Source of the DNA: Thermoplasmata archaeon
Lineage (GTDB): Archaea > Thermoplasmatota > Thermoplasmata > RBG-16-68-12 > JAFNFQ01
NCBI GenBank assembly: GCA_041489255.1
Contig: JBGPQV010000007.1
Location: 4,006 to 68,005, forward strand
Length of the DNA: 64,000 nucleotides
Reading direction: 5' to 3'
A program made the position numbers and the translations under genes. The notes below the pieces were generated by a model, which saw only the letters and a list, made by a program, of their open reading frames with translations, ran no database searches and was not told where the DNA came from. Of this stretch, positions 9,215-63,543 are shown piece after piece. The first letter of the stretch is position 1. Each line of letters starts with the position of its first letter.

Positions 9215-9687
9215 TTCGCGACCCCTTTCCTCAGGGGGCTCGGCCCGAGCCTCCTCACCTTCTCTGTCATGTCCGCGATCATCTCGGCGAACTTGCTTGC
9301 CATGGCGGACGAGAGGTTGTACATCTCGACCCGCTCAGGCTCGATGCCGACCTCCTCAAGCAGCTTCTTTGCGGCGGCGACCCTCTTCTTCGCCCTGAAG
9401 TTGCCGTTCATGAAGTGACAGTCGCCATCGAGGCAGCCCATGACCATGACGCCGTCCGCGCCGTCCTCGATTGCCCTGAGCAGGTAGAGTATCTCGATCT
9501 TCCCGGAGCACGGGAGCCTGATGACCCTCGCGTTCGGCGGGTAGTTCAGCCTCATCGAGCCCGCAAGGTCCGCGGCGGCGTATGCGCAGAAGTTGCAGCA
9601 GAAAGCGACTATCCTCGGCTGGAACGACGCGTTCGCCTCAATCCCCTTCTTCACCGCCGCCACCGCCTCAGCCGCCATTCGTCGCAC
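9211..9687 (-). CDS. mvhD: MvhD-like (methyl-viologen-reducing hydrogenase delta subunit) [2Fe-2S] protein
   Basis: IVAFCCNFCAYAAADLAG...RLPCSGKIE...MGCLDGDCHF motifs typical of MvhD. Confidence 0.85.
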   Translation of the reverse strand: MRRMAAEAVAAVKKGIEANASFQPRIVAFCCNFCAYAAADLAGSMRLNYPPNARVIRLPCSGKIEILYLLRAIEDGADGVMVMGCLDGDCHFMNGNFRAKKRVAAAKKLLEEVGIEPERVEMYNLSSAMASKFAEMIADMTEKVRRLGPSPLRKGVAK

Positions 9688-12600: not shown

Positions 12601-12927
12601 AGTCGCCGCAGGCGGTGCAGTCGTCCCTGACCATACGGGCTTTCTGGAGTACTTCGACGGTGAAGTTGCCGGCTTCGCCCGAGACGCGCTTGACCTCCGC
12701 GTTGGTCATTATCGTGACCATGGGGTGCCGGGCCACCTCGAGCATCCTCGGTGCGAGTATGCACATCGAGCAGTCCATGGTGGGGAAGGTCTTGTCGAGG
12801 CGGGGCATGTTGCCGCCGATGCTCGGGCTTTTCTCGACGACGGTGACATGCACGCCCTGGTTCGCGATGTTGATGGCGGCCTGCATGCCGGCGATCCCGC
12901 CGCCAATTACAATCGCCCCGCGGGTCA
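9668..12927 (-). CDS. hdrA: heterodisulfide reductase subunit A, tandem-duplicated (two FAD/CCxxC modules, ~1086 aa)
   Basis: two GxGxxG FAD sites (AIVIGGGIAGMQAA; AVVIGGGIAGLSAA), two HdrA Cys clusters (EYCSKVCCMYGMKD; GYCSRFCCASGLKS), several 4Fe-4S ferredoxin motifs; ORF-track N-terminal 139 aa is out-of-frame overlap with hdrB, true ATG at 12927. Confidence 0.85.
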
Positions 12928-13746
12928 TTTCCTTCCTCCCGCCAGGGCGGCCATGATCGGACGGGTTGACACCACGTTCATGTCGAGCGCCGCCTCGGCT
13001 CCGAGCCCGAAGGCGAGCGCCATCAGCTGAGTGAAATAGACCACGGGAATCTGACCGTCCTTTCGGCCAGCCAAGGCTTCTTTCTGGTAGAGGTCGAGCA
13101 TCATCCCGCACATCGGGCAGAGAGTCACGACCGCGTGAGCGTCCGTCGCCTTGGCGGTTTTGAGGATCATCCCGCCCATCTCCACCGCCCGCGAGTGCTT
13201 CGAGAGCGTTATCGGCCCGCCGCAGCACTTCATCTTGGCGGCGAACCTGACCGGCTCCCCGCCGAGCGCCCTCGTCAGCTCGTCGAGCTTCTTCGGGTCC
13301 TCCGCGCTGTCGAACGTGGGGTCGACGCGCGTCAGGAGACACCCGTAGTACGAGGCGACCTTGAGCCCCTTGAGCGGCGCACTCACCTTTTCCCTCACCG
13401 CCGCCAGCCCGACGTCATCGTACACGAGCTGAAACAGGTGCTGCACCTTCGGCGGCCTCGCATTCTGCTTCGCGAGGTGCTCCTCCGCGCCCTTGAGGTT
13501 CTTGAAGCACGCGGAGCAGGGCGTGACGAGCGATCCTCCTTTCACCATCCCGAGGTTCCTTGTCCCGAGGCCGAGGGAGATGTCGTAGCTGTAGGAAGCG
13601 GTCGGCGTGGCCCCGCAGCAGACCCAGTCGGGCATCTCCTCGAGGAGAACGCCGAGGGCCTTGCAGACCGCGATCGCGGAGTCGCCGTATTCCACGGCGG
13701 TGGAGTGGACCGAGCAGCCGGGGAAGTAGGGGTAGGACCTCGCCAG
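12925..13746 (-). CDS. hdrB: heterodisulfide reductase subunit B (CCG domains); start apparently non-canonical (CTG) or upstream of first GTG
   Basis: two CCG-type Cys motifs; conserved N-terminal SYPYFPGCS is encoded upstream of first GTG (13695) with AGGAGG 9 nt before an in-frame CTG (13746). Confidence 0.75.
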   Translation of the reverse strand: MARSYPYFPGCSVHSTAVEYGDSAIAVCKALGVLLEEMPDWVCCGATPTASYSYDISLGLGTRNLGMVKGGSLVTPCSACFKNLKGAEEHLAKQNARPPKVQHLFQLVYDDVGLAAVREKVSAPLKGLKVASYYGCLLTRVDPTFDSAEDPKKLDELTRALGGEPVRFAAKMKCCGGPITLSKHSRAVEMGGMILKTAKATDAHAVVTLCPMCGMMLDLYQKEALAGRKDGQIPVVYFTQLMALAFGLGAEAALDMNVVSTRPIMAALAGGRK

Positions 13747-13747
13747 C

Positions 13748-14311
13748 TCAACCGCCCTCCTTGAACTTCTTCTTCAGGTCATTCAGGTCCGTCATGCTCT
13801 TGGCGGGCAGACCGAGCTTGCCGTGCTTGAACAGGGAGAGGGCGGCGCCTCGCATGGACAGCAACGAGAGCGGCGAGGTGCGCATGGCGTAGCGGATCAT
13901 CATCTCGGGCTCGTAGACCCGCCCCCTCTTGAGCACGTTCCTGACGAACTCCTCCGCCGAGGCCCTGTCCTCGAGATCCGCGATGCCGGCGGCTATGGAC
14001 ATGTTGCGCAGCTTCATCATCAGGTCCGCGACGGGGATTCCCTTGGGGCATCTCGTCGTGCATGCGAGGCAGTTCGTGCATAGGAAGATCATCTTCGACT
14101 TCAGCGCCGCCTCGATGTCTCCTCGGGCGACGAGGTTCACGATCATCCGGGGAGTGTAGTCCGCGAGGGGCGCGACACCGCAGGAACCCGAGCAGGTGCC
14201 GCACTGCATGCATCTCCTGAGCAGCTTCAGGTCCTTGAAAGCGAGAAGTCTCGACTCCCACGCAGAGTCACGAGATGCCTGTGCGCTGACCTGCTTGGCG
14301 AACTCGGCCAT
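13748..14311 (-). CDS. hdrC: heterodisulfide reductase subunit C (2x[4Fe-4S])
   Basis: CMQCGTCSGSC and CTNCLACTTRC ferredoxin motifs; ATG at 14311; ORF-track upstream extension overlaps tRNA region and is not coding. Confidence 0.8.
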   Translation of the reverse strand: MAEFAKQVSAQASRDSAWESRLLAFKDLKLLRRCMQCGTCSGSCGVAPLADYTPRMIVNLVARGDIEAALKSKMIFLCTNCLACTTRCPKGIPVADLMMKLRNMSIAAGIADLEDRASAEEFVRNVLKRGRVYEPEMMIRYAMRTSPLSLLSMRGAALSLFKHGKLGLPAKSMTDLNDLKKKFKEGG

Positions 14312-14484
14312 GGTGCAACCTGCTTCGCTGTCTCGAATGTCCAGAACTAGTGAGTCCTGAGACAGTGGTGCGAAATGGGTGATGGCTATTAAGCGATTCC
14401 GAATTACCGAAGGTATCCATCCATACGGAGCGGAGAACGCCGCGGGGCATGTCGGGGCCGTCGCTGAAGGGCGGCGGGAATGCG

Positions 14485-14491
14485 TTATATA
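14485..14491 (+). promoter_or_regulatory. archaeal TATA box for tRNA-Gln
   Basis: TTATATA centred ~26 nt upstream of tRNA 5' end. Confidence 0.55.
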
Positions 14492-14513
14492 GAGCCTGAG
14501 GTTCTTTGGACGC

Positions 14514-14586
14514 AGCCCCGTGGTGTAGTGGCCTAGCATACGGGCCTTTGGAGCCTGTGACGGCAGTTCAAATCTGCCCGGGGCTG
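14514..14586 (+). tRNA. tRNA-Gln (anticodon UUG)
   Basis: hand-folded cloverleaf: acceptor AGCCCCG/CGGGGCU, anticodon stem CGGGC/GCCUG with loop CU-UUG-GA, T-arm GGCAG-UUCAAAU-CUGCC, discriminator G. Confidence 0.8.
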
Positions 14587-14695
14587 TTTCTAGGGGTCGA
14601 TCCATCGCGCCTTTCTGGCTGTCAGGTACGCCATCGCGACGGCGAAAAGGATGGATATCGTGAGAGAACGACGACGGGCGCGCAGTTCGGCTGAA

Positions 14696-25083: not shown

Positions 25084-25273
25084 GCCCGGGGATTGGGGGA
25101 TGGGGTTATGGTCGTTGCGCATCGGAGGATTGACTCGCGTGTCGATGGCAATTCGCAGTGATCGACTGGACGGTTCGTTGGCAAAACGACTTCTGGCCGG
25201 ATGCCCCTGGGAGCCGGAGCAGTTCCCGACCGAGCCGAAACATTAAATAGGATCACTTCTGCTAAATCGCCTC

Positions 25274-30360: not shown

Positions 30361-31213
30361 CTATGACGGGTAGAAGACCGCGACCATGGTCCCGCGTACA
30401 TAGCGGTCCACCGCGTCTTGACCCGCCGCCATGTAACCGGCCATGTAGTAGGTGTACGTGCCCGCCGTGACGGTCTCGATCCATTGGCTCGACTGTGTCG
30501 AACCATAGACTGCCGTGGACGCCCCGGACTCGATGTAATAGACTCCCAGTTGATCGTCTATGGCGTCGCAGGTCGCCACGTCCGTCGTGATCTTGAACCA
30601 GTAGGCGTCTGTCTGGCCGCTCGTGTGACTGAGCAGATCGTACTGCCATGCGCTTATCACTATCTGGCCGTCTGCCGGGACGGTGATGGTCAGCTGCATG
30701 AAGGCTTGGCACGAGGCCGTGATGGTCGTGACCGTGCCGAAGACTGTGGAAACCATGAGTGTGCCCGGGCCCGGCGGACCCTGCAGGCCCTGCGGACCTT
30801 GCGCGCCCGCGCAGTCGAGCACGTCCACGACGAGATCGCCGTTTATGTCTTCGGTCGCCAGGTCCCCCACGCGATTGCCATTCAGGTCCCAGCAAGCAAG
30901 GCCAGTCAGGCCCGTGTTCCCGGGCAATCCCTGATTTCCCTGCAATCCCTGGTCTCCCTGAACTCCCTGGATTCCTTGGTCTCCCTTCGGCCCCGCGGGC
31001 CCCGGGAACATTACCATGCCGACCAGCGCAAGCGCCAGACCGGCGGCACCAAGTGCCAGAGCCACGCCAGCCAGCGCGTTCCCCTTGCGAGGAGGGGAGA
31101 TCGGCTCCGGCGCGGGACTCGGCGGCGGTGGCATCATCTGCGGCTGAGGCGGCGGCATTCCTGCACCTGTCGTCTGTCCTGAACTCCAACCTGACATGAT
31201 TGATTTCTCCTTT
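30361..31213 (-). CDS. collagen-like (GXX triple-helix repeat) membrane-anchored protein
   Basis: Pro-rich N-terminus, TM (ALAGVALALGAAGLALALVGMVMF), runs GPAGPKGDQGIQGVQGDQGLQGNQGLPGNTGLTGL and GAQGPQGLQGPPGPG, C-terminal beta-rich domain; ORF-track 5' extension is out-of-frame overlap. Confidence 0.6.
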
Positions 31214-31322
31214 GTGTCCATCACGGATGGACTGCGGTGAATCTGCATCGCCGATATCAAAGTTCTTCTCAGTCTCTGAGTTTTGATAAGCATCGAAGAG
31301 GCGGCGGGAAGGGGCGCACCGA

Positions 31323-44386: not shown

Positions 44387-46909
44387 TCAGCCCGGGACAT
44401 TCCACGAGACCGATGACGGAACGAAAATCCAGTAGCCCTCCCCCGCCATCATCGTGTATGAGTCAGGCACCCGCCGCAGGTAGTACGGCGCCGCCGTCGC
44501 GTCGAAGGCCTCGACGGAGACCGAGGGCATCCCCAGGGCGGCTTTAAGATCCGCAATCGCATAGCTCGCATTCATCGAGGGAAAACCGACCATGTTCCAG
44601 CCGGCATGGAGTTGAATGGTGGTCGTGTCGGGCCTCACGCCTATGACCGTGAGGTCGCATGCGGCCGTGACATTGATCCAGAACCCCATGCCGTTGTCGA
44701 GCCGCAGCAGGCTGTTCGGATTCCTTCCCGGCATGAACACCTTCCATGGGCTGACCGGATCCAACCCAGCATAGTACCGCACGTAGTCGAAGCAGCCCGC
44801 CACCGATGAGAGGACGCTCTCGATGCTCTCGTTGGCGGGAAGGAGAGGGAAGGACAAGAACCGGTGGCCCGGCGTCAGGTGGATGGTGTAGGTGGTGACG
44901 ACGCCGATCCTGCTGCACGCGACGTTGTTCGATTCGTCGAGCTCGTAGAACTCGTCGGGCGAGTCGGCGAAGACGCAGATGTCGTACCAGCCGTTCAGGC
45001 CAGTGGTGTCGAACTGGATGGAGGTCATTGTTAATGAGTCGTCATTCACCGTCGAGACGCCGCTGCTCAGCAATGTCCCGCCAAGGCGGGGGTCGCCAAG
45101 GTAGAACGAGACGGTCGCGTTCACCGCCGGGAAGTGGCCGACGTTGTGCACCGCCGCGTCCACGTCGATGGTCTCCCCCGGATTCGGGCGGGGGTTTGAG
45201 AAAATAATATCGTCAGGGGACAGGGTGAGGTCCGGGAGATAGCTCCTGTTGTACGGAGCGAGCTTCGGGTCGCCCATGATCGCGTCCATCCAGCTCAGGC
45301 CTATCTGGGATGCCATCATGTAGCTCTCGGCCAACGTGTATCCCCGGGTGTAGGCGTCGTAGAGGATGTCGGAGTGGGCTATCGCGCTTAGGTAGGGTTC
45401 GTAGACGTAGCCCTTCACACCGGTGACCCCGTCTCTGATGAGGTCCGCGACGAGAGACTGCCCATAACCGGTCCCATACACGAAGCTCCTCGCGCCGGTG
45501 GACACCGCCGTCTCCGCGAGGGAGCCTGGTATCCAGGTGTTGTGCGGTCTGATCTCGATCATCCGAATGTTATCGACGAACGCGGTGCCGTTCGCTTGGG
45601 CGAACACGACCGAGACCCTGAGCTTCATCGCTCCGGGAACCGGTTCGTAGATGACCTGAGGGAAGCCCCGCCATTTCGAGGTCCCCGACACGGCCGAACC
45701 GTTCACCACCGCCAGGACGTTGTCGTAGGAGTCGAGCGCCTTGATCTGGAGGAACAGCCCGCGCCCGGCCACGCCGGTGTAGTTCGCGCTGCCTGTGAGG
45801 AAGTACCTGCTCCCAACCACGGCGGAGAAGTTCTCGGAGACCGCGGTGTAGTTGCCATCGGCGAATGGCCTCTCGATCCTCAGAGACCAGAAGCCCGATT
45901 CGAACACGCTCGAGTTCCTCGACACGCTGGCCGTCCCCGCCGGATCGTCGTAGAACCATCCATCCGGGACGCCGTTCGAGTCCGCGTCACTCTCAAGGCC
46001 TGAGTTCGAATTCATGGCGGTGTACCATGTGCCGTCGTTGCTGCCCCAGCTGGAGTATCCCGCCACGTTGGAGTCGTTCGTGAGGAAAGCGTAGGTCTCA
46101 TCCAGCGTAACGTCGAAACCTCTGGCGGTGAGGATGGGGGCGGCGTCCCTCATCCAGTCGTTACCGACCTGGTAGGCGCCTCCATCTTTCCCCGGATCGA
46201 CATCAAGAACGAACTTACCTCGGCGACCGATCGCCTCCGTTGCCTTGTCGACCAGGCCGAGCGCCTCGGGGACGGTGAACGCGGTCAGGCGGGTGACTAT
46301 GTAGAACCCCCACCTCGCGCGGGTGAAAGGCGCGAACTTGTCATAGTATGGGTTATTGAACCATCGGTTGCGGCCGATTTGACTTTCATAAGGACCGCCA
46401 ACGAGTGCCAGCTCTGAGTCCACCGACGATGAGTTCTCCCAAGGAGACCGCCAAGTCCCCAGCGGTACGCCCTTCGTCGTCACGAGGAAGTTGATCGCCG
46501 TGCTCGGCGGGATGGCGTTCAAGCAGGTCTTGACCTGGTTCGCGAGGGCGGTGAATGTAGCCCCGTCGATTTGTTCGTTAGGGGAGGTCGTGACGTTGCA
46601 GACATGTGCCCAGCTGATGTTTCGCTGAGTTGTGAAGTAGTCCGCGATGGTCATCGAATCTGCCGAGTTCAGGTTGCGGATCACGAGGACATCCGAGTAG
46701 TTCACCAGGGAAGCGTAGCGCTTCGAAGGGACAGCGTCGGTCTGGAAGCCGCCGCCAGCCGTCTCTCTTCCTCCCGATGCGTTCGATTCGCGGCTGCCCG
46801 CACTGCTGGCTGGCGGGGCAGACGCTGAAATCGAGAGAAGAATCGCGAGCGCCAAGATGAGCGCGGAGGCCGCCGACAATGTCGATGAGAAACCGTCGCG
46901 GCTGTGCAT
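44387..46909 (-). CDS. large secreted protein with CARDB-like domain and the same conserved ~160-aa C-terminal domain as CDS 752..3772
   Basis: signal peptide; C-terminal 160 aa ~50% identical to C-terminus of 752..3772 (…GCFDYVRYYAGLDPVSPWK…GWNMVGFPS…APYYLRRV…GEGYWIFVP…). Confidence 0.75.
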   Translation of the reverse strand: MHSRDGFSSTLSAASALILALAILLSISASAPPASSAGSRESNASGGRETAGGGFQTDAVPSKRYASLVNYSDVLVIRNLNSADSMTIADYFTTQRNISWAHVCNVTTSPNEQIDGATFTALANQVKTCLNAIPPSTAINFLVTTKGVPLGTWRSPWENSSSVDSELALVGGPYESQIGRNRWFNNPYYDKFAPFTRARWGFYIVTRLTAFTVPEALGLVDKATEAIGRRGKFVLDVDPGKDGGAYQVGNDWMRDAAPILTARGFDVTLDETYAFLTNDSNVAGYSSWGSNDGTWYTAMNSNSGLESDADSNGVPDGWFYDDPAGTASVSRNSSVFESGFWSLRIERPFADGNYTAVSENFSAVVGSRYFLTGSANYTGVAGRGLFLQIKALDSYDNVLAVVNGSAVSGTSKWRGFPQVIYEPVPGAMKLRVSVVFAQANGTAFVDNIRMIEIRPHNTWIPGSLAETAVSTGARSFVYGTGYGQSLVADLIRDGVTGVKGYVYEPYLSAIAHSDILYDAYTRGYTLAESYMMASQIGLSWMDAIMGDPKLAPYNRSYLPDLTLSPDDIIFSNPRPNPGETIDVDAAVHNVGHFPAVNATVSFYLGDPRLGGTLLSSGVSTVNDDSLTMTSIQFDTTGLNGWYDICVFADSPDEFYELDESNNVACSRIGVVTTYTIHLTPGHRFLSFPLLPANESIESVLSSVAGCFDYVRYYAGLDPVSPWKVFMPGRNPNSLLRLDNGMGFWINVTAACDLTVIGVRPDTTTIQLHAGWNMVGFPSMNASYAIADLKAALGMPSVSVEAFDATAAPYYLRRVPDSYTMMAGEGYWIFVPSSVSWNVPG

Positions 46910-47075
46910 TCGATTTCCTGTGCATTCACGGCAGCGGCATTCATCAACATAATCCTTCTGGCCGTACCCCCACGCCAGAAACCATCATATATCTGCAAAA
47001 GAATGTTCATTCTGGAGGAAGGGGGCAGGGCGTGGCCGACGGATTTCCATTGCGAGGGCCAGGAATCTCCAGCAC

Positions 47076-48978
47076 TGTGAAGATTTTTTCTCTATCCCTA
47101 TTGGCCGTGCTGCTTCTCAACATGCCTGCCGTTTGTCGGCCCAATGAACAGACTGACGAGATTCCAATCGTAAGTGATGCTCTGCAGACAGAACCAGTCG
47201 GTCTATCATCGCCCGCGGGATACTTCATAGAGAACCGCGGCCAGGTTGCGGACGGCATCAGGTACTACTCGATTGGCAACCCCGCCATCGCATTCAGGGA
47301 TGACGGGATCATGTACTTGCTGAGCGACGTTCGACGAGAAGAGAGCAGGGACGCAGGAGCCCGCGGCATCTCGATTCCTCCCGACCGCCAAGCAGGTGAT
47401 CAGTCGACGACCATGTCGCATGCTTATTTCATCCATTTCCGTGGCGCCAATCCCACGAGACCGGTTGCGATGGAGAGACTGTCGTCTCTCAGCAACTACT
47501 TCCTCGGAAATGATCCGAGCAGGTGGAGGACGAACGTGCCGGAGTTCGGAACGGTGGTCTACCGGATCCTCTATGACGGGATTGACCTCACATATTCCTC
47601 CGGCGCGGACGGCATCAAGTACGAGTTCGCTGTGCATCCCGGAATCGACCCTGCGGCAATCGAGATCGAAGTCGACGGGCTCGAGTCTCTGTTGCTCGAT
47701 GAAGGGACCTTGGTTGCCAGGACCGCCGCAGGGGATGTGCGCGACTCTCCGCCCATATCCTTCGATTCCGCGGGCGCCGAGGTGGATTGCCGCTTCGCGC
47801 TTCATGAGACAGACTCATACGGCTTCGATTGCGGTGACCGTGATGAATCCAAGACGCTGATTATCGACCCGCTGATTTATTCGACGTTCCTCGGCGGAGG
47901 GAATTGGGACGGCGCCAACGCGGTCGCGGTCGATTCCTCCGGGAACGCGTTCGTGACGGGCTGGACCCGCTCTGTCGATTTCCCGATTACGGCGGGGGCG
48001 TTCCGCGTCAACAACAACGGCTGGGAGGATGTCTTCGTGGTCAAGATGAACGACACGGGCAGCGGCCCTCTCTATTCGACCTACCTCGGCGGCACCTCCG
48101 CGGACATCGGGCTCTCGATCACCGTCGATGCTTCGGGCAAAGCGTATGTCGCGGGCAAGACCATGTCCAGGGATTTCCCCGTGACCCCCGGCGCCTACGA
48201 CCAGGGCTTCAACAATCCTGACTACGAATATGATGCCTTCGTGGCGAAGATCGGGGCCGCTGGAAACTCGCTCGTGTATTCCACTTTCCTCGGAGGCAAC
48301 CACAGCGACATCGCCAGGTCCATCGTCATCGACGGCAGCGGGAGCGCATTCGTGGCCGGAGAGACCGTGTCGCCGACCTTCCCCGTGACGCCCGGTGCAT
48401 ACGACAAGTCGTACGACAACGGCGACGCCTTCGTTACCAAGTTCAACCCATCCGGAAGCGCCCTCGTCTACTCGACCTTGCTCGGCGGAAACGAGTCGGA
48501 CCACGCGTGCGCCATCAAGATCGACGCCGCAGGCAACTCCTTCGTCGCCGGATGGACGACTTCCCCGAATTTCCCCGTGACCTTGGGCGCATTTCAGAAG
48601 TTTCGGCGGGGGACGGAGGACGCATTCGTGACAAAGCTCAGGGCTGATGGCGCGGCACTTCTCTATTCCACATTCCTCGGAGGAGACGACAACGATCGTG
48701 CGTGGGGGATTGCGGCAGACTCGGCGGGCAGCGCGTACATCACGGGCGAGACCTATTCGCCCGGCTTTCCCACCACGCGAGGGGCAATCGACAGAACATA
48801 CGATGGGGCCGACGACGTCTTTGTCACGAAGATGAACGCCACGGGCACTGGCCTGATCTATTCGACGTTCTTGGGCGGCACCGGGGGAGAGGTGGGCTAC
48901 TCCATCGCGGTGGACGCGCTGGGGAACGCTTATGTGACGGGCGAGACAGGCTCCCCCGAGTTCCCTACGACGCCGTGA
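47076..48978 (+). CDS. SBBP beta-propeller repeat surface protein, N-terminal part (terminated by in-frame TGA)
   Basis: signal peptide (VKIFSLSLLAVLLLNMPAVC), N-domain paralogous to 752..3772 (YFIENRGQVADGIRYYSIGNPAIAF), ~9 SBBP repeats; GTG start 47076 inferred. Confidence 0.7.
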
Positions 48979-51477
48979 GCGTTTGACCGGACACACAACG
49001 GTCTCCCGGATGTGTTCGTCGTGAATATCACTGCGAACGGGAGCTGGCTCGGCTATTCCACTTTCATCGGCGGCGGCAGCTGGGATTGCGGGTTCGGCAT
49101 CACGCTGGACGAATCGCGGCTGACCTATGTCGCAGGTGAGGCATGGTCCGTTGACTTCCCCGTGACTCCCGGCGCTTTCGATTCGAACCTCAGCGGCTAC
49201 CGCGAGGGATTTGTCACGAAGCTCGTGACCAGGGCGAACACGCCTCCGGTCATTGTCTCGTTCACGGTGACTCCTCAGCCGCAGGCCGAGGGGAGCACGG
49301 TGACTTTCGATGTCGTAGCGAAAGACGCAGAGGGAGACAAGCTCACGTACGAATTCGATTTTGAGTCCGACGGCGTGTTCGAGAAGCAGGGAAGCGATGC
49401 GAGGGTGACCCATGTCTATGGAGACGACTTCCACGGGACAGCCGCTGTCCGCGTCAGCGACGCGAGCGACAGCGTGAATGCGAACGCACCGGTGACGATC
49501 ACCAATGTGGCACCCGCGATTTCCTTCACCTCAGCACCTTCGGGAGACGAAGCCGACATCCTGAATTTCAGTGTCCACATCACAGATCCGGGCAGCGACG
49601 ACATCACGGTGGGATGGTCTGGCTCATGCACCGGCTGGTCGTCGCCGACGGTTTATCCGAACGACCCCGCGAGGTATCCGGACCCGCATCCTAGCACCGC
49701 GGTCAATCCGCGCGATGTGACCAACGGGCAACGCGTCGTGTGCGGAGACAATGGAGTCTTCACATGGGCGGTGAGAGCGGAGGACGACGACGGAGGAGTC
49801 ACGAGGCTCTCCGGACGCTTCACGGTCGCGAACCTGCCGCCTTCGCTCGATGTCACACCGCCTCAGCAAGCGAGCATAGACGAAGGGCAGTCCGTCTCAT
49901 TCACCGCCACCGCAACAGACCCGGGCAGCGACGACCTGACGTTCAGCTGGTCGTGGGGGGAGGGCTCGAGCGAGAGCAGGACATGCTTCGACAACGGAAT
50001 CGGGCCAGATCCTCCGGATAGTCCGAACGGCACTTATCCATTCACCGCCACCGACACCGCCAACCACACCTATGGCGACGACGGGCTCTACAACGTCATG
50101 CTGACGGTGAACGATGACGATGGCGGTTCGACATCGTGGCAGGGGCAGGTCTCGGTTGCCAACATCGCGCCAGAGATCGAACCGTTCGGGCCGTTCTCTG
50201 CTGCCGAGGGGCAGTCATTGTCAATCATCGCCAACTCGACGGATCCCGGAAGCGACGATTTGACGTTCACTTGGACATTCGAGCTCGGCCCGACCGTCTC
50301 CATCACACATTTCAACGACGGAATCGGCCCTGACCCGCCCCAGAGCCCAGGTGGTATCTTCCCATTCGCCGCCGCCTGTCTGGTCAACCACACCTACGGC
50401 GACAACGGGCTCTTCACACTGACCCTCACAGTCACCGATGACGACGGTGGTTCAGCGACTTGGCAAACGGAAATCGAAGACTTGAATCTCCCGCCATCAA
50501 TAACTCCGTTCGGTCTGTTCGACCTGGACGAGGCGGAACAGATTTCCGTCACCGCACACGCCCTCGACCCCGGCAGCGATGACCTGACCTTCGTCTGGTC
50601 GTTCGAGTTCGGCCCGACCGTCAGCCACATATTCTTCAACGACGGAACGGGACCGGATCCGGCGAAGAGCCCGGGCGGCGTGTTCCCGTTCAGCTCCGAC
50701 GACGTTGCGACACATACATACGGAGACAACGGCATGTTCAGAATCTCTCTCACCGTTCAGGACGACGACGGCGGTTCTTCTTCCTATGAGACGCTGGTGA
50801 CAGTCCGAAATCTTCCTCCGACCATCTTGGACGCCAAGGTCTTCATGCTCGCGAATGTGACCCTGCGCGTAGCGGGCGAGAAATGGCACGATGTCATCCT
50901 CGACCTTTATGAGGGTCCCGAGGAGGTCGGCGAAATCCGAGTGGTCAGGTCTCCCGGGAGCCCGAACGACCAGACGGCGACAATCCGTCAGGCCGAGGTC
51001 ACTCTCAGCAGGCCGTTCTCTGCGGTCGCCCGTTACACGCCCGACGACGATCCCGTCAACGGTCAGCCGAATGGGGCTGACTCCGCGTGGCTCATTATCG
51101 ATTGGGAGGACGGCGACACCACGGTCTTTCATCATACATTCAACGTTCAGCATACCGATACATACGTCTGGACCGTCAACAACCTCAGTGCCTACGCGGT
51201 CAATCAGATTGTCCATCTGAAAGCCACGGCCATGGATCCCGGCAGTGACGATCTTTCGTTCCTGTGGGACTCTGGAGACGGGAGGACGTTCGCCGCCATC
51301 TATTACAATGACGGAATCGGACCAGACCGATACCCGAGCCCAGACGTGAATCCGATTACCGCCACCAACGAGGCGATCCTTGTGTACGGTGCCACTGGAA
51401 CGTACGCGATAAGACTGATTGTGACCGACGACGACGGAGGTTCGGTCGACCTCCTCCTGCCGATTTCCATAGGTTGA
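48979..51477 (+). pseudogene. continuation of the same reading frame after TGA: 1 more SBBP repeat + ~9 PKD-like domains (possible pseudogene/readthrough)
   Basis: same frame as upstream CDS; repeat pattern runs seamlessly across the stop (…EFPTTP*AFDRTHNGLPDVFVVNITANGSWLGYSTFIGGG); PKD-like repeats (DPGSDDLTF.WS…). Confidence 0.7.
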
Positions 51478-51612
51478 GAACGACAAGCGGAATTCTGGCG
51501 GGCATTCTCGGGCAGCATGAGGAATAGCGCACCGGGGCTGGGAAACTTCCACCTCCCGCCAAAGATTTAGGTAAGCGGAAATGTCAAATACCCCCGTTGT
51601 CGTCGGTGCGAC

Positions 51613-52377
51613 GTGGCGGATACGGTCACACTGCTTCTGATTGCCGCAGCCGGCATGTCCACGGCCCTCGGTGGCATCTTGATCGTCGCGATTCGCCGCC
51701 TGACGCACCGCATGCACGACACGATTCTGGGCCTCGGCGCCGGCATCATGCTCGGAGTCTCCGTCTTCGATCTCCTCCTCCAGCTGGGCGAGCACCGGAG
51801 TGAGGACTGGCTCCTCATCGCCGCCGGGATCGTCGGCGGAACGGCAGTGGTCGCCGTCCTAATCGGAGTGTTCCGCAAGATGCCCCTCCCGATGCCCTTC
51901 GTCAAGAACTCCGCGCCCGACACGACGGGAGCCGCGTTCCTGCTCGTCATCGCCCTGATGATCCACAATCTGCCGGAAGGACTGGCCACGGGCATAGGCT
52001 ACGGACACGGTCCGACCACCTTGGGCAACAGCATCGCTGCTTCAATCGCGTTCCAGAACATCCCCGAAGGGCTGCTCGTTGCGGTGGCGGTGCTCGCCGA
52101 GACTGGTTCGAAGCGCGCGGGCTTCAGCTACGCGGTGCTCAGCGGCGCCGTCGAGCCCGTTGCGGGATATGTCGCGTACTTCGCCCTGTCAGTCTCCCCC
52201 GCAACCGTCGGAGTCGTTTCGGGCTTCGCGGCGGGTGCGATGCTCGCAGTCGTCTTCTTCCAGATGATACCGGAGAGTCACAGGCACGGCTACAGAGTGC
52301 CTGCGACTGCAGCTCTCGCAGCCGGGGTCCTGCTGGTCGTGGCGGTGAACCTAGCGCTCGGGCAGATCAGATTATGA
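51613..52377 (+). CDS. ZIP-family metal (Zn/Fe) transporter
   Basis: HNLPEGLATG and FQNIPEGL motifs, 8 TM. Confidence 0.8.
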   Translation: MADTVTLLLIAAAGMSTALGGILIVAIRRLTHRMHDTILGLGAGIMLGVSVFDLLLQLGEHRSEDWLLIAAGIVGGTAVVAVLIGVFRKMPLPMPFVKNSAPDTTGAAFLLVIALMIHNLPEGLATGIGYGHGPTTLGNSIAASIAFQNIPEGLLVAVAVLAETGSKRAGFSYAVLSGAVEPVAGYVAYFALSVSPATVGVVSGFAAGAMLAVVFFQMIPESHRHGYRVPATAALAAGVLLVVAVNLALGQIRL

Positions 52378-52593
52378 GCGTTAGCCACCGACTATCTGCG
52401 CACTCTTTTGGCCGATCACAGAGAAAGGAGATCAAGTCGGGGAATCTCTGTCTTATGATATTACATAAATGCGACGGTTCAATCTGAAGTCTCATGTCGA
52501 CCTCGGGCGCACGCCTTGGGTCGCCGTCCGCAGGCACGCCAATCACGTCAGGTTGATGAAGAGCGAGTCCCATATGATAATACGGAGTCAAAC

Positions 52594-56654: not shown

Positions 56655-57209
56655 ATGCCCGAAAACCGCCACGTGAAATCGAAGGTCTGCCTCGTCGGCG
56701 AGGCAGCGGTCGGCAAGACCTCCCTCGTCCGCCGCTACGTCGTGGACGAGTTCGACGACAAGTACATCACCACCCTGGGGGCGAAGGTCTCCAAGAAGGA
56801 GATGGAGTACGACTACCCGGAGAAGGACATCCACGTGGACATGGACATGACCATTTGGGACATCATGGGCGAGAAGGGGTTCAGGGATCTCCTCAGCGAC
56901 GCTTACTTCCAGGGAGCGAAAGGGGTGATCGCGGTCTGCGATATCACCCGCATATCGACCGTGAAGGAGCTCGACGACTGGATCAAGTCTGTCTTCGAGG
57001 TGGTCGGCGAGGTCCCCGTGGTCTACGCGGTGAACAAGAACGACCTGCGGGACGAGGTCATGCTGATGTTCACGGAGAAAGACCTGAAGCAGTGGACGCG
57101 TGCCTTCGACGCGCAGTACTTCTACACCTCGGCGAAGACGGGGGAGAACGTGGAGAAGGCGTTCAAGGCGCTCGGGGCCGCGATCGTGGCGAAATCTGGC
57201 GTGTTATAG
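56655..57209 (+). CDS. Ras/Rab-like small GTPase
   Basis: G1 GEAAVGKTS, G3 WDIMGEKG, G4 NKND, G5 SAK. Confidence 0.8.
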   Translation: MPENRHVKSKVCLVGEAAVGKTSLVRRYVVDEFDDKYITTLGAKVSKKEMEYDYPEKDIHVDMDMTIWDIMGEKGFRDLLSDAYFQGAKGVIAVCDITRISTVKELDDWIKSVFEVVGEVPVVYAVNKNDLRDEVMLMFTEKDLKQWTRAFDAQYFYTSAKTGENVEKAFKALGAAIVAKSGVL

Positions 57210-57298: not shown

Positions 57299-57841
57299 GT
57301 CGTCAAGGAACTGAAGAGCAAGATATGCCTTGTCGGTGAGAAGAGCGTCGGCAAGACATCCCTCATACGACGCTTCGTCCTCGACACATTCGACGACAAG
57401 TACGTGGTGACCGTCGGCACAAAGATCACGAAGAAGGAGGTCAACGTCTTCAAGCCGGAGCTTGAGGGCGAGGTCCGCGTCGACATGACGATCTGGGACA
57501 TCATGGGCGAGAAGGGGTTCAGGGAGCTCCTCAAGGACGCTTACTTCTACGGGGCGAACGGCGTCCTTGCTGTGGCCGACCTGACGAGGAAGAAATCGCT
57601 CAACGACCTGGACGACTGGATCGACGGCGTCGAGAAGATAGCCGGCAAGGTGCCTATATTCATCGCGGTGAACAAGTGCGACCTGATCGATCAGGCGCAG
57701 TTCTCGCTAAAGGAGGTCTCGCAGATGGCGAAGGCCTTCGATTCCGAATTCCTTCACACTTCGGCGAAGACGGGAGAGGGGGTCGAGCAGTGCTTCAAGA
57801 AGCTAGGGGATTTGGTGGTCGAGCATCAGCTTGGCATGTAG
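57299..57841 (+). CDS. Ras/Rab-like small GTPase (paralogue); no canonical start codon upstream of G1 in frame
   Basis: G1 GEKSVGKTS, G3 WDIMGEKG, G4 NKCD, G5 SAK; frame open from stop at 57239 but no ATG/GTG/TTG before the P-loop. Confidence 0.65.
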   Translation, partial: VVKELKSKICLVGEKSVGKTSLIRRFVLDTFDDKYVVTVGTKITKKEVNVFKPELEGEVRVDMTIWDIMGEKGFRELLKDAYFYGANGVLAVADLTRKKSLNDLDDWIDGVEKIAGKVPIFIAVNKCDLIDQAQFSLKEVSQMAKAFDSEFLHTSAKTGEGVEQCFKKLGDLVVEHQLGM

Positions 57842-57992: not shown

Positions 57993-60900
57993 ATGAGGCG
58001 AGACACGGAAAGACGATGGTCGGGCATTGCCATCCTCCTAGTCCTGACTCTGCCGGGAGGCTTCATCGGTTCTTTCGCGCCGATGGCGGGTGGAGTGCCG
58101 TCTGTCAAGAACCTGGAGACGGGGAACAAGACGGTGAGCTGGAACTTCACTGATCCTGCGGACTACTCTTTCACGAATGTCACTTTGGCGGGTCGACTTG
58201 ACCAGACCAGCGACGTGCTGACGCAGGACGCGACTCAAGATCTAGTGGCTAATGGTACGTGGGATAACACAAACCTCACGATATCTGGCGGATCAATTGC
58301 TAGTCGCGAGTTCAGAAAGGAATTGGTCATAAACGGGACATTTGACGCGTCACCACCATGGAGGTACGCAAATGGAACGGGCGGCAATCTGTCCGCTGAA
58401 TGGAGTGCAGCTAATCGGACAGCGAGCTACGTCCATAGTCGAGGGGCGTCAGCCGCTGTACAGTTCGATGAGATGGATGCCGTAGCAGGATGGACTTACT
58501 CCTCCACAGGCACTCCCTCCCCGCTGGGAGGCATATCACTGGACAATGTTTATTTCAAAGAGCCAACAGCGTCGATTCTCCTAGATGTGAGATTTAGGGG
58601 GGATCCGACCGGCTGGGCCGCTGCGAGACGGCTTGGCCTCTGGGATTGGTCATCCTACAATATGCTATCCGTGTGGCTGAATACAACATACATAGCTCCA
58701 GAAGTTCCGCTCGCCTTTGTCAATTTGGTCGCCGGCGGATCGCCCTGTGATTCGGCTCTTGCTTGGATGAAACCCGGCTGGTCAAGGTATTATTTTGATA
58801 TCTCAGGATGCTCAGGCCTGACGGCCGTGACGGATGTTGATTTCCGTTTCACTAATGTGACTGGTAACTCATGGGAGCAGATATGGGTCGATGATGTCTG
58901 GCTCTATCATTTCGACAACATCACTCAATCGGCTAGCATCTCTCAGGACATTCTGAAGATGAACTTCACTGCCCCTAATCCAATGACGCTCCTTCTGAGT
59001 TTCGACTACAAGGTTGATTCCGCGGCTAATCTCACCGACGCGAACCTCACCGCCTGGATCAACGGCGCTCTTCTGTCAATCCCGCCAATCCCCGCTAACG
59101 CGCCGATCGGTTGGACGCACGCGAGCTACGACATCAGCGTCGCCCTGACCGGGAAAGGGCTTTTCAATCTATCATTCATCGCAAGCCTATCACTGTTTAC
59201 TCCTTATGCCACATCAATGAAAGTGGAGATAGACAACACTTCTGTGACCGTCCCCGACTACCATGGGGGCATCTACGAATCCGTTCCGTTCAATCTTGGC
59301 CACGCCGTGCGCTTCGACAACATCTCGTTCGCATCGTCTAGCCACCCGGACACGAACGTCACGGTCGAGGTCCGCGGCGGTTGGTCGAACCAGACGGACG
59401 ACGGCTCATGGACTCCATGGGAGCAGCACTTCAATTCGTCAGAGATTCTTCTGAACAATTCCAGCGCCAGTTTCCTTCAGTATCGCGTGATCCTGAACAC
59501 CACGAACGCCAGCGCGGCGGTCTCCTTCGACTGGATCAAGTTCGAATTCCACAGATACGTCGATGGCGGCAGCGTGCAGACGGTCGACTGGTCTCCGCCA
59601 GAGACTCTGATCGGTTGGAGGCGGTTCGGGGCGAACTACACCGTTCCGCCGTTCACCTCAGTTGATTTCTACATCTCCAACGACACAGGTTCCATCTGGT
59701 ATCCGGTCATGCCTGGCGATTCCCTCGATACGCTTGGCGGCAACACGATCAGCATCAAGGCGGAATTCGAGACCCTCAACACGACATTCACGCCCGAGTT
59801 GTTCGAGCTCAACGTGACCTATGAGTTCCTCGGGCCGCTGGACAAGATCACCGTGAGCCCGGCGACATGGTCAGGCACCGCGGACGATCAGATATCATTC
59901 ACCGCCAAGGCGAACGACCAATGGGGCCACCTGATCACGCTATTCACCCCGATTTGGACCGATGATGATCCTGCCGGCAGCGTCAATCCCAGCGGCCTGT
60001 ATCAGGCTGGTACAGAAGGGAACTGGCACGTATGTGCCTCTTCTCTGGGAATCGTTGACTGCGCCAACGTGACCGTCACTCACGGAAGGTTGGTCCGCAT
60101 CGATATCAGCCCGACCTCTGCCTTCGTGATGGCGAAGACCACCCGCCTTTTCAGCGCTTCGGGCTTCGACGTCTTCGGCAACGACGTCCCCCTCACGGAC
60201 ACTTCATGGACCACCGATGTCGGCAACTTCAGCAGCCTCACGCCGGCAAACGCCATTTTCATGGCTATCGGAGTGCCCGGTGTGGGCAGTGTCTGGGCCA
60301 AACACAATTCCGCGTCAGGCCTCCTCGTGGCGCGGGCGGACGTGACAGTGACCGCATCGAACACGGTGGTCATCCAGGGCCTCGTGCCGAACCAGAGTAA
60401 GCCCGAGGACTCCCCGCCGTGGCAGCTGAATCTGACGCCCTACCTGCCGCCGGGCCCGAGTCCAGACGACCTGATGTGGTACCTCGAGGACAAGAACGAG
60501 GCGCTCTACACGGTCCTCGGCGAGAGACGCTTCGGCCAGCACGTCCTCACGTTCTATCCCAAGCAGGACGCGTTCGGCGACAATGACGTGACCCTCTGGC
60601 TGGAGGACCGTCTCGGCGCGAGAGACTCTCAGCCCCTCCTTGTCTCCCTGACGCCCGTGAACGACCCTCCGGTGTTCTATGACGTCCCACGCTTGCAGAT
60701 CAAGGCTGGGGTCTCCTACGTATTCGACTACTCGCCTTATGTCTACGACGTCGACACCCCCAAGGACATGCTCATCCTCAGCACCGACGACCAGACGCAC
60801 ACGAAGACCGTCGGGCTCACCGTCAATTACACCTACGATTCGAGCTACGCAGGACAGACGGTCATGGTCCGCTTGAGAATATCTGACGGCTCAAGTTCAT

Positions 60901-62630
60901 CCTCCACGATCCAGCTCATCGACATAGTCGGCGGCGACAACGCCTGCCCGCACGTGCTGAAGCCCCTGCCCCCTGTCTCGATGTTCGAGGACGTGCCGAT
61001 TACGGATGCTTTCCCCGACATCCTCCAGAACTACTTCGGCGACGCGGATGGGGATCCACTCACCTACAGCTTCGGCCACCCGCAACACATGACGATCAGC
61101 ACATGGACCACGCCACCGAACTACATACACGTGAACATCACCTCGGAGCTCGACTGGTACGGCATTGAGTACCTCACCGCAAGAGCGACCGACCCCTCAG
61201 GCTGCTTCGCGGAGCAGACAGTGCGCGTCACCGTCGTCCCCGTGAACGACCCGCCCGTGCTCGATTGGCACGACGACATATACATCAAGCGCGACATGCC
61301 CTACAACCTCGACTTGACGGACTTCGTGAGCGACGTGGACAACCCGATGTCTGAGCTCACCCTGGACACGAACAACACAATCCTCGCGACTGTCGAGTTC
61401 TTCAACATCCACCTCCTCGCGACCTACCAGATAGGGCTGGTCACGTCACTGCACCTATCCCTCTCGCTCACGGACGGACAGGCCACCGTCTGGTCCAACG
61501 TAACAGTGCGCATAGGGACTAACGAGCCGCCGATGCTCAGGCCGGGGACGAGCCTCCCTGACGTCACTTTCAACGAGGACACGCAGGCCGTCATGGTGTT
61601 CGACATGGACAGCTACTTCGCCGACGCTGACGGCCCGCAGCCGCTGACATACTCGGTCCTGACAGAGACGGTAATCGCCCAGGTCGACAACAGTTACAAC
61701 TACGTGAACTTCAGCGCCCCGCCGAACTGGAACGGCCAGGAGGTCGTCCACGTCAGGGCGTCTGACGGGCTCGGCTTCGTGATCGGCAGGCTCACTGTCA
61801 GGGTCATCCCGGTGAACGACGCGCCTGTCATAGACCCGATGCCTGACTGGGACTTCGGAGACGGCGGCATCGTGGCGATCGACCTGAGGCAGTACGTGCA
61901 TGACGTGGACAACAATATCACCGAGCTCAGGTTCAACACGAACACCCCGCACGCGACGACGGTCGGGTACATCCTGATCCTCGATTACCAGGACGGCGCC
62001 GCGTCGGAGATTGTGGCGCTCACGGTGAACGACACGATGCTGAACGCGTCGAGGTCGTTCACGGTGACGACGAAGGGGACGTTGCCGGACAACCCTCCGC
62101 CGCTCTGGGCGCAGATACTCTGGCCGTGGTCTATCATCATCCTCGTGATCCTGGCGGCGATAGGCGCCGTGGCTTACAACAGGGTGCTCGACAGGCGCTA
62201 CACCATGGAGGACGCCTTCCTCGTCGGCAAGGAGGGTCGGCTGATAATGCACACCACCCGCCACCTGATGGCCGACAGGGACGAGGACATCCTGGCGGGG
62301 ATGCTGACCGCGATCCAGATGTTCATCAAGGATTCGTTCAAGGAAGAGGGCGGGGACCTGAGGAACTTCCAGTTCGGCGATAACCAAGTCCTGGTCGACA
62401 GAGGCGAGCGCTTCTACTTCGCAGCGATGTACTCAGGCGAACCGCCAGAGACCGCTGCGGACAGCATGACCGCCTTCACGGCTGACATCGAGGCATCCTT
62501 CGGACCGATTTTAGAACGCTGGTCGGGCGACGCGGACGAGTTGAAGGGGCTGAGGTCCCTCATGGACGCGTTCACGGCGCACCGCAGGTACAGGCAGGGC
62601 GATTTCAAGAAGTTCGTCAAGAAGGCCTAG
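57993..62630 (+). CDS. 1545-aa transmembrane giant protein: extracellular cadherin-like repeats, single TM, cytoplasmic Roadblock/LC7-like domain
   Basis: signal/TM at N-terminus; >=5 modules ending (V/I)(P/T)VNDxPV with DADGD-type Ca sites; TM LWAQILWPWSIIILVILAAIGAVAYN; C-terminal ~150 aa with beta-alpha-beta-beta pattern (AFLVGKEGRLIMHT…ILAGMLTAIQMFIKDSF…LRNFQFGDNQVLVDRGERFYFAAMYSGE). Confidence 0.75.
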   Translation: MRRDTERRWSGIAILLVLTLPGGFIGSFAPMAGGVPSVKNLETGNKTVSWNFTDPADYSFTNVTLAGRLDQTSDVLTQDATQDLVANGTWDNTNLTISGGSIASREFRKELVINGTFDASPPWRYANGTGGNLSAEWSAANRTASYVHSRGASAAVQFDEMDAVAGWTYSSTGTPSPLGGISLDNVYFKEPTASILLDVRFRGDPTGWAAARRLGLWDWSSYNMLSVWLNTTYIAPEVPLAFVNLVAGGSPCDSALAWMKPGWSRYYFDISGCSGLTAVTDVDFRFTNVTGNSWEQIWVDDVWLYHFDNITQSASISQDILKMNFTAPNPMTLLLSFDYKVDSAANLTDANLTAWINGALLSIPPIPANAPIGWTHASYDISVALTGKGLFNLSFIASLSLFTPYATSMKVEIDNTSVTVPDYHGGIYESVPFNLGHAVRFDNISFASSSHPDTNVTVEVRGGWSNQTDDGSWTPWEQHFNSSEILLNNSSASFLQYRVILNTTNASAAVSFDWIKFEFHRYVDGGSVQTVDWSPPETLIGWRRFGANYTVPPFTSVDFYISNDTGSIWYPVMPGDSLDTLGGNTISIKAEFETLNTTFTPELFELNVTYEFLGPLDKITVSPATWSGTADDQISFTAKANDQWGHLITLFTPIWTDDDPAGSVNPSGLYQAGTEGNWHVCASSLGIVDCANVTVTHGRLVRIDISPTSAFVMAKTTRLFSASGFDVFGNDVPLTDTSWTTDVGNFSSLTPANAIFMAIGVPGVGSVWAKHNSASGLLVARADVTVTASNTVVIQGLVPNQSKPEDSPPWQLNLTPYLPPGPSPDDLMWYLEDKNEALYTVLGERRFGQHVLTFYPKQDAFGDNDVTLWLEDRLGARDSQPLLVSLTPVNDPPVFYDVPRLQIKAGVSYVFDYSPYVYDVDTPKDMLILSTDDQTHTKTVGLTVNYTYDSSYAGQTVMVRLRISDGSSSSSTIQLIDIVGGDNACPHVLKPLPPVSMFEDVPITDAFPDILQNYFGDADGDPLTYSFGHPQHMTISTWTTPPNYIHVNITSELDWYGIEYLTARATDPSGCFAEQTVRVTVVPVNDPPVLDWHDDIYIKRDMPYNLDLTDFVSDVDNPMSELTLDTNNTILATVEFFNIHLLATYQIGLVTSLHLSLSLTDGQATVWSNVTVRIGTNEPPMLRPGTSLPDVTFNEDTQAVMVFDMDSYFADADGPQPLTYSVLTETVIAQVDNSYNYVNFSAPPNWNGQEVVHVRASDGLGFVIGRLTVRVIPVNDAPVIDPMPDWDFGDGGIVAIDLRQYVHDVDNNITELRFNTNTPHATTVGYILILDYQDGAASEIVALTVNDTMLNASRSFTVTTKGTLPDNPPPLWAQILWPWSIIILVILAAIGAVAYNRVLDRRYTMEDAFLVGKEGRLIMHTTRHLMADRDEDILAGMLTAIQMFIKDSFKEEGGDLRNFQFGDNQVLVDRGERFYFAAMYSGEPPETAADSMTAFTADIEASFGPILERWSGDADELKGLRSLMDAFTAHRRYRQGDFKKFVKKA

Positions 62631-63543
62631 GCGGCCCGGCAGAATCGCCATCGCCCTCCCGCTTCCTGTAGATCCTCCCGACGTACTTCCTGTAGTCGTG
62701 GTTCGGTCCCTTCCGCCAAGGCAGCTCGAACAGGCCGTTGATGTTCACGTACAATTCGGGCAAGAGCCAGAAGCAAAAGACCAGGAGCATGACGAGGACC
62801 AGCACCGCCAGCCCCTTCCCCCAGTACCCGTGCGCCAGCTCGAATTCGACGTGCTGCACGTCGAATGAATAGATCACCACGAAGTTCCTCACCAGGTTCA
62901 TGAAGTAGGTCACCGGGATGACGACGGCGGCTGCCAGGAGCTTCCTCTTTGGCGGCTCCTTCACGCCGAGGATCATCGCGACCGCGATGGCGATGCCCTG
63001 GATTGCGGTGCACGCGAGGATGATGTGGACGACCGGCCTGCCGACGGAGTTGAGCAGGGGCGCGTAGATATCCTCCCCGTTGACGCGGTAGAATGGCGGG
63101 TTGCCCACGAGCGTGGCGGGTCCCGCGGTGTATGAGACGTTCGCGGCGCCGAGCAGGGCGGCCGTCTGCTGGGTCACCGCCTCGATGAGCCATGCGGAGA
63201 GCTGGGGGATCCTGTCCACGACGAAGTAGATTGTCGACGCGATGAAGGCGGCACCCGCCAGGAACCTCAGCGGCTCGTACTCATCGTTCCACTGGTACGA
63301 GAGTCGCTCGTGATATGCGAAGAAGAGGAAGGCGATGAACGCCCCGATGCTCCCGAGCACGTTCAGCAGGTCGAGGGAGAAAGCGTATGATGGGGCCTGG
63401 GCCAGCCAGAATATCGCGAAGATGGCCCATCCGGCCGCGCGGAACTGGTGACACCTCCTCTTCTTCCAGAGGAACCCTATTCCCAAGGCCACCAGCCCCG
63501 AGAACAGGAGAATGTCGTTGAGGATCCTGAGTTCGCCCGCCAT
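62617..63543 (-). CDS. polytopic membrane protein, exosortase/archaeosortase-family-like
   Basis: ~8 TM; candidate active-site Cys in PVVHIILACTAIQGIA (cf. exosortase P..V…ACSGI.S) and NLVRN Arg motif. Confidence 0.45.
   Translation of the reverse strand: MAGELRILNDILLFSGLVALGIGFLWKKRRCHQFRAAGWAIFAIFWLAQAPSYAFSLDLLNVLGSIGAFIAFLFFAYHERLSYQWNDEYEPLRFLAGAAFIASTIYFVVDRIPQLSAWLIEAVTQQTAALLGAANVSYTAGPATLVGNPPFYRVNGEDIYAPLLNSVGRPVVHIILACTAIQGIAIAVAMILGVKEPPKRKLLAAAVVIPVTYFMNLVRNFVVIYSFDVQHVEFELAHGYWGKGLAVLVLVMLLVFCFWLLPELYVNINGLFELPWRKGPNHDYRKYVGRIYRKREGDGDSAGPPRPS

Follow-up and report, generated by a model that had tools for sequence, protein, structure and literature searches.

We found that a gene encoding a large surface protein of a Thermoplasmata archaeon is split by a single in-frame TGA codon (context CCG TGA GCG, + strand) in the window, the 64,000-nt stretch of DNA analyzed here. 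This codon probably arose through a very recent, strain-private GGA to TGA nonsense substitution, which would make the gene a nascent pseudogene. The two ORFs annotated on either side of the stop belong to a single gene that has been disrupted or else mis-called, and there is no evidence for unusual decoding. The window also encodes archaeal aIF2-gamma, ribosomal protein S6e, a Pelota-like protein, the archaeosine transglycosylase (TGT) and PTH2; the best named relatives of its aIF2-gamma belong to Thermoplasmata/Thermoplasmatota metagenome-assembled genomes (~70% identity), and the aIF2-gamma loci of other strains are found at 97% identity.

The ORFs flanking the stop, 46879..48978 and 49012..51477, are both encoded on the + strand and are offset by 2133 nt (711 x 3), so that they share one reading frame, as the first-pass annotation had stated. 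Translation of positions 46879-51477 encounters one internal stop, at codon 700, in addition to the terminal one, and both halves align to single proteins of 1,451-1,511 aa, placing homology to one continuous protein on either side of the premature stop. The size claimed for the split gene, above 1,460 codons, agrees with the fused frame of 1,466-1,481 codons and with the length of the intact orthologs. The start implied by the longer upstream ORF (ATG 46879) fared less well: the candidate start codons and the intact orthologs favor GTG 47077 or GTG 47032 as the probable start, ahead of a hydrophobic N-terminal leader (KIFSLSLLAVLLLN), with ATG 47122 as a further alternative. The downstream ORF as annotated begins at GTG 49012 and would carry no signal peptide. 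The features of the gene are listed in Table 1.

Table 1. Features of the interrupted SBBP/PKD gene, in window coordinates.
Feature	Position	Strand	Description
Whole interrupted gene	47077..51477	+	~1,466 codons; signal peptide, DUF7948, 7-repeat SBBP beta-propeller, 5 PKD, C-terminal region
Upstream part (would-be truncated product)	47077..48975	+	leader, DUF7948, SBBP repeats 1-5, first three strands of repeat 6
DUF7948	about 47224-47874	+	Pfam, E 2.6e-51
SBBP beta-propeller region	47881..49227	+	seven repeats, 28 predicted strands, four per repeat
In-frame TGA	48976..48978	+	single G>T at 48976 relative to GGA (Gly) in all seven related loci
Downstream part	48979..51477	+	last strand of repeat 6, repeat 7, five PKD, C-terminal region

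Upstream of the stop, Pfam profiles detected DUF7948 and six stretches of SBBP (E 2.3e-33), the latter at 114.3 bits against a Pfam cut-off of 20.5, which places the protein among the repeat beta-propeller proteins of PF06739; downstream of it they detected five stretches of PKD-type domains (PKD_4, E 1e-36; PKD, E 8e-33). Hundreds of proteins from bacteria and archaea have the same domain order of DUF7948, seven SBBP repeats and PKD. Scores against the NCBIfam LipL53 and M36-peptidase models fell far under the cut-offs, and no obvious C-terminal sorting signal was seen in the protein. The propeller consists of seven repeats of ~65 aa carrying the motif FP[ITV]T.GA[FYI], and this pattern continues without a break across the stop, as previously noted, with the TGA of the sixth repeat occupying the position of the motif glycine. 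The other six repeats were said to have Gly encoded by GGA or GGC at this position. Glycine is indeed present in all six, but none of them uses GGA (GGG at 47995, GGC at 48190, GGT at 48394, GGC at 48586, GGG at 48781 and GGC at 49171). Likewise, the description of the site as a conserved glycine holds for these six repeats and for all seven orthologous loci but only for 12 of 19 more distant homologs, which otherwise have Asp, Asn or Ser in the homologous column; as judged from these alignments, the position is conserved, though not invariant.

An AlphaFold2 model covering residues 59-744 of P0001, an ortholog with 96% identity, has a mean pLDDT of 87.4, with most of the propeller above 90, and arranges 28 high-pLDDT strands in seven sets of four. 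In this model, the glycine (residue 591) lies within a long loop of repeat 6, between strand 3 (AYVTGET) and strand 4 (DVFVVNI), and five of the 28 propeller strands are positioned downstream of it. No solved structure was detectable by sequence search. By fold comparison, the best match in the PDB was the CylK chain (7fh6, 7ron; E 3.7e-24, TM about 0.51-0.54, 22% identity); the CylK propeller is thus the nearest solved fold, and nothing indicates a CylK-like catalysis in the SBBP/PKD protein.

Searching with the fused protein returned P0001 (1,481 aa), at 96% identity over 100% of the query, as well as full-length homologs of ~1,470 aa with 50-53% identity. Among the seven members of the 90% cluster of P0001, five are intact (1,451-1,511 aa), and the remaining two are the window's own halves, both from one NCBI contig (98,361 nt): P0122, which has 618 aa, begins at ATG 47122 and ends ...SPEFPTTP, and P0126, which has 821 aa and begins MFVVNITANGS. 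Split products in this cluster therefore come only from the contig of the window itself. Because both halves are already stored in the public protein collection, we rejected a planted or synthetic mutation as the origin of the TGA. We also sought fragments ending in ...EFPTTP in other samples with a 301-aa query spanning the junction, which returned only multi-repeat SBBP proteins of about 40-56% identity, and a protein scan of genome contigs found only distant homologs (<=42% identity).

At the DNA level, seven syntenic loci were recovered (L001-L007), from JGI metagenomes 3300052989 and 3300032118, NCBI assembly GCA_041481165.1, three ENA assemblies and one Logan assembly, all with the same neighbors: a divergently transcribed CARDB protein gene upstream and a ZIP transporter gene downstream. 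The gene is intact in each of the seven (1,451-1,511 aa), and the codon is GGA in all of them within an identical 33-nt context, so that the TGA allele is confined to one of eight assemblies, the window's own. When JGI metagenome contigs were scanned with this DNA pattern, with N at the variable base, the sole match (Ga0315277_10000266) again carried GGA; the same pattern had no match among GTDB species representatives.

The closest of these loci, contig Ga0534152_0000023 of JGI 3300052989 (L002), differs from window positions 37077-61477 at one base in 24,401 nt, with no gaps, and is identical to it throughout the downstream half of the gene; the one mismatch is position 48976, T in the window and G in the JGI contig. 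Extended over 21731-61477 (L002 together with L021), the JGI contig shows three SNPs and no indels in 39,747 nt. Besides 48976, these are 25252 and 25264, which are 12 nt apart in an intergenic AT-rich spacer separating a MazG-like gene from a 196-aa ORF, and the JGI alleles at both positions recur in a Logan assembly (SRR29605724; L022). An alignment of 24,356 nt with the NCBI assembly GCA_041481165.1 (L006) contains six differences, with 48976 among them. Judging from these alignments, the window is a slightly distinct genotype that was cleanly assembled. The first-pass proposal of a recent nonsense mutation or a sequencing error is supported by these data, as all seven related loci have GGA and the near-identical contig differs at this base alone over 24.4 kb. 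Since GGA occurs in all related loci and only a single base differs over that length, the change is either very recent or artefactual. We found no second lesion in the window copy of the gene, by which the change would likewise be extremely recent or not real.

In this lineage, the full-length gene is maintained by selection. Compared with strains 92-97% identical, dN/dS was 0.23-0.24 for the part of the gene before the stop and 0.135-0.21 for the part after it. Values of 0.14-0.24 in both halves point to purifying selection on the whole gene as read from the alignments, and thus to maintenance of the full-length protein in the lineage. Coding constraint downstream of the stop is, on the same comparisons, accounted for by the intact GGA allele.

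A real nonsense mutation and an error in the base call both fit this pattern, and we consider the former probable. GGA, the ancestral codon, is the sole glycine codon that a single substitution can convert into a stop, the other six repeats have GGG, GGC or GGT at this position, and GGA to TGA is what an ordinary random event would look like. Given an otherwise clean assembly and a slightly distinct genotype, private SNPs are expected. Against a real mutation, a nonsense allele under purifying selection should be rare and short-lived, the allele is present in only one assembly, and a consensus error fits the data equally well. The T at 48976 could be an error of sequencing, assembly or consensus calling, or a variant present in a minority of reads and picked by the assembler, in an organism that has GGA and an intact gene, which we regard as a possible but less favored explanation. 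The T is the only difference from the JGI contig in 24.4 kb and one of six from GCA_041481165.1; it is missing from the seven other assemblies and from the match of the JGI metagenome scan; it creates a nonsense codon in a gene with a dN/dS of about 0.2; and the window copy shows no accompanying decay. In addition, G>T changes typically result from oxidative damage when libraries are prepared. Weighing against an error, the window has no indels and three substitutions in 39.7 kb relative to an independent assembly and thus looks very accurate, and a consensus base normally requires a majority of the reads. Moreover, the alleles at 25252 and 25264 are consistent in two other assemblies, indicating real microdiversity on the order of 1e-4, under which a private SNP would be expected.

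The alternative in which the TGA is decoded, by programmed read-through, as selenocysteine or as glycine, such that the full-length protein is made, is highly improbable in our assessment. In its favor, the TGA is placed exactly at a glycine position and the reading frame downstream is fully intact. Reading of UGA as glycine is known only from genetic code 25, which operates genome-wide in the bacterial Gracilibacteria (BD1-5) and Absconditabacteria (SR1), whose genomes contain many in-frame TGAs and never use TGA as a stop (PMC4032931, PMC3812714). The window resembles these genomes in that its TGA occupies a position that is Gly in the paralogous repeats and in the orthologs, but it differs from them in having a single such site, in deriving from an archaeon of ~60% G+C in which TGA ends about half of the genes of the window, and in having a near-identical strain with GGA at the site.

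Indeed, TGA terminates 26 of 47 heuristically called genes in the window, where it is the commonest stop, and several of these genes end where their Pfam profiles end: FlpD (profile positions 1-123 of 123), S6e (1-124 of 125), methylmalonyl-CoA mutase (2-512 of 512), PTH2 (1-114 of 115) and the archaeosine TGT, whose PUA domain matches 2-73 of 74. A glyoxalase gene, with a Pfam match reaching the C-terminus, ends on TGA as well. The first-pass annotation had cited hdrC, pth2 and atpD as genes with a genuine TGA stop. PTH2 bears this out by its profile end, and the HdrC-like ferredoxin gene does end on TGA, although its 4Fe-4S matches finish at about residue 190 of 285 and give no such profile-end pattern; the gene called atpD was not found. 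A scan for interrupted genes (stops with 360 nt of open, GC3-rich frame on each side) detected no further case in the window in which both sides of a stop show coding signal and homology. TGA thus serves as a terminator in the window, and in-frame TGAs in many genes were not observed there.

Neither was there a sign of a dedicated recoding signal. The stop is conserved in none of the seven orthologous loci, all of which have GGA, and the sequences flanking it are the same as in the GGA allele, which leaves no room for a dedicated signal to have evolved around it. The 100 nt following the stop are predicted to fold at -30.3 kcal/mol, compared with a mean of -31.0 for shuffled sequences (z +0.22), indicating no downstream structure. 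At the gathering threshold, Rfam matched only a tRNA-Gln in the whole window, and a permissive scan of 46500-52500 gave one chance match (E 4.5); neither scan detected a SECIS or another relevant element. ARAGORN, too, found tRNA-Gln(UUG) as the sole tRNA of the 64-kb window. Archaeal selenocysteine recoding would share with this gene an in-frame UGA inside a long ORF, but it differs in other respects: no SECIS-like match was found, the position is occupied in homologs by Gly, Asp, Asn or Ser and in none by Cys or Sec, orthologs do not keep the stop, and the protein is a repeat-rich surface protein rather than a redox enzyme. As far as the archaeal cases treated in two published sources extend (PMC8037382, PMC8211752), the only established instances of archaeal recoding are Sec, Pyl and a single -1 frameshift. 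Programmed read-through, which the first-pass annotation had listed among the options, is therefore poorly compatible with the stop being found in no ortholog, with flanks shared with the GGA allele and with the absence of a structural signal.

In a softer variant, the TGA allele would be real and ribosomes would read through it part of the time, owing to near-cognate decoding or a suppressor tRNA, giving a reduced dose of the full-length protein together with the fragment; we give this the same slight chance as dedicated decoding. If true, a Thermoplasmata archaeon would offer a natural example of leaky UGA termination that has a phenotype.

Phase variation had also been raised. A contingency switch of this kind, by which expression of the surface protein would alternate reversibly between off and on, is the least credible of the explanations considered. 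The protein is large and secreted or surface-located, a class that is often phase-variable, and its gene is mosaic between strains. Against a switch, we found no homopolymer, short tandem repeat or other simple-sequence repeat, and no inverted (invertible) repeat, at or near 48976, where only weak short repeats at chance level occur; the two short tandem repeats of the gene, at 48083 and 50043, are far from the TGA. A single base substitution, furthermore, does not revert at high frequency, and the OFF state is seen in only one of eight assemblies. Taken jointly, read-through, recoding and phase variation are very unlikely to explain the TGA.

If the nonsense substitution is real, its consequences can be outlined from the gene's domain layout. 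A G>T transversion at 48976 would have turned the GGA glycine codon into TGA and, because TGA is the main stop codon of this organism, ribosomes would be expected to terminate at 48976-48978. Termination would yield a leader-bearing fragment of ~630 aa, comprising DUF7948 and an incomplete propeller; going by the ortholog model, this propeller would be missing five of its 28 strands, with all of repeat 7 among the losses. The propeller ring could then not close, and the fragment would also lack the C-terminal region and all five PKD domains. Re-initiation at GTG 49012, if it takes place at all, would produce a leaderless cytoplasmic fragment. The net effect would most likely be a loss of function, which may be tolerated owing to an intact DUF7948-SBBP paralog encoded in the same window (752-3805, - strand). 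More speculatively, the loss could be favored if the protein were a target of viruses or grazers.

A nascent pseudogene formed by a single nonsense substitution matches the gene in all of these features: one in-frame stop in an otherwise intact homologous frame, intact relatives, no secondary decay and an ancestral GGA one step from a stop. We see no difference in kind from ordinary strain-level gene inactivation in prokaryotes. If the base is real, one genotype of an uncultured Thermoplasmata population has newly acquired a loss-of-function allele of a single large surface protein, which adds modestly to what is recorded of cell-surface gene turnover. If it is instead an error, the outcome is an annotation problem, and the public ORFs (618 aa and 821 aa) should be merged into one gene of ~1,466 aa. 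Strain-level nonsense substitution is in any case a well-known kind of event, and the finding matters little in itself.

Several further observations concern the same gene and its relatives in the window. Over 47122-51474, divergence between strains is uneven: relative to L001 and L007, dS was ~0.18 in the N-terminal part and 0.043 in the C-terminal part, whereas relative to L003 it was 0.093 and 0.110, respectively. This mosaic pattern suggests recombination within the gene. The intact paralog at 752-3805 encodes 1,017 aa with DUF7948 (E 1.1e-48), SBBP and CARDB, ends on TGA, and is located in a stretch of lower G+C content (51-54% over positions 1-4000, vs about 62% elsewhere).

Other large or repetitive proteins are encoded nearby. 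A gene with a weak Pfam Collagen match (~30361-31248, - strand) is 295 aa long in the genotype of the window (L021, 11692-12579) and 278 aa long in strains 97% identical (L019, 7043-7879), which suggests variation in repeat number. A Big_9/cadherin-like protein of 1,545 aa is encoded at 57993-62630 (+), directly downstream of two adjacent genes for small GTPases of the Arf/Ras/Roc type (56655-57209 and 57404-57841, +); four of the six SNPs relative to GCA_041481165.1 (L006) cluster inside the Big_9/cadherin-like gene, at 61199-61236.

The strongest other match of the interrupted-gene scan was TAG 31731 (- strand), the normal end of the CysRS gene, which is followed 33 nt later, in the same frame, by a 124-aa ORF with a strong coding signal (in L021, CysRS occupies 10001-11209 and the following ORF 11243-11617). 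The site is of note because TAG can encode pyrrolysine in relatives of Methanomassiliicoccales. Here a DALR_2 match extends up to the CysRS C-terminus, by which the two are most likely chance neighbors in the same frame.

On the - strand, the cluster at 7629-14605 encodes MTHFR, a MetV-like protein (DUF5981), MvhD/FlpD, a 1,224-aa HdrA-like flavoprotein with many 4Fe-4S domains and the HdrC-like ferredoxin, an arrangement of the MetFV-Hdr-Mvh type in a Thermoplasmata genome. At the other end of the window, a 308-aa membrane protein (62617-63543, -) that adjoins the genes for large surface proteins has a sub-threshold match to Exosortase_EpsH (E 9e-5; 22.4 bits, against a cut-off of 25.7) and, on the strength of this similarity, may be an archaeosortase.
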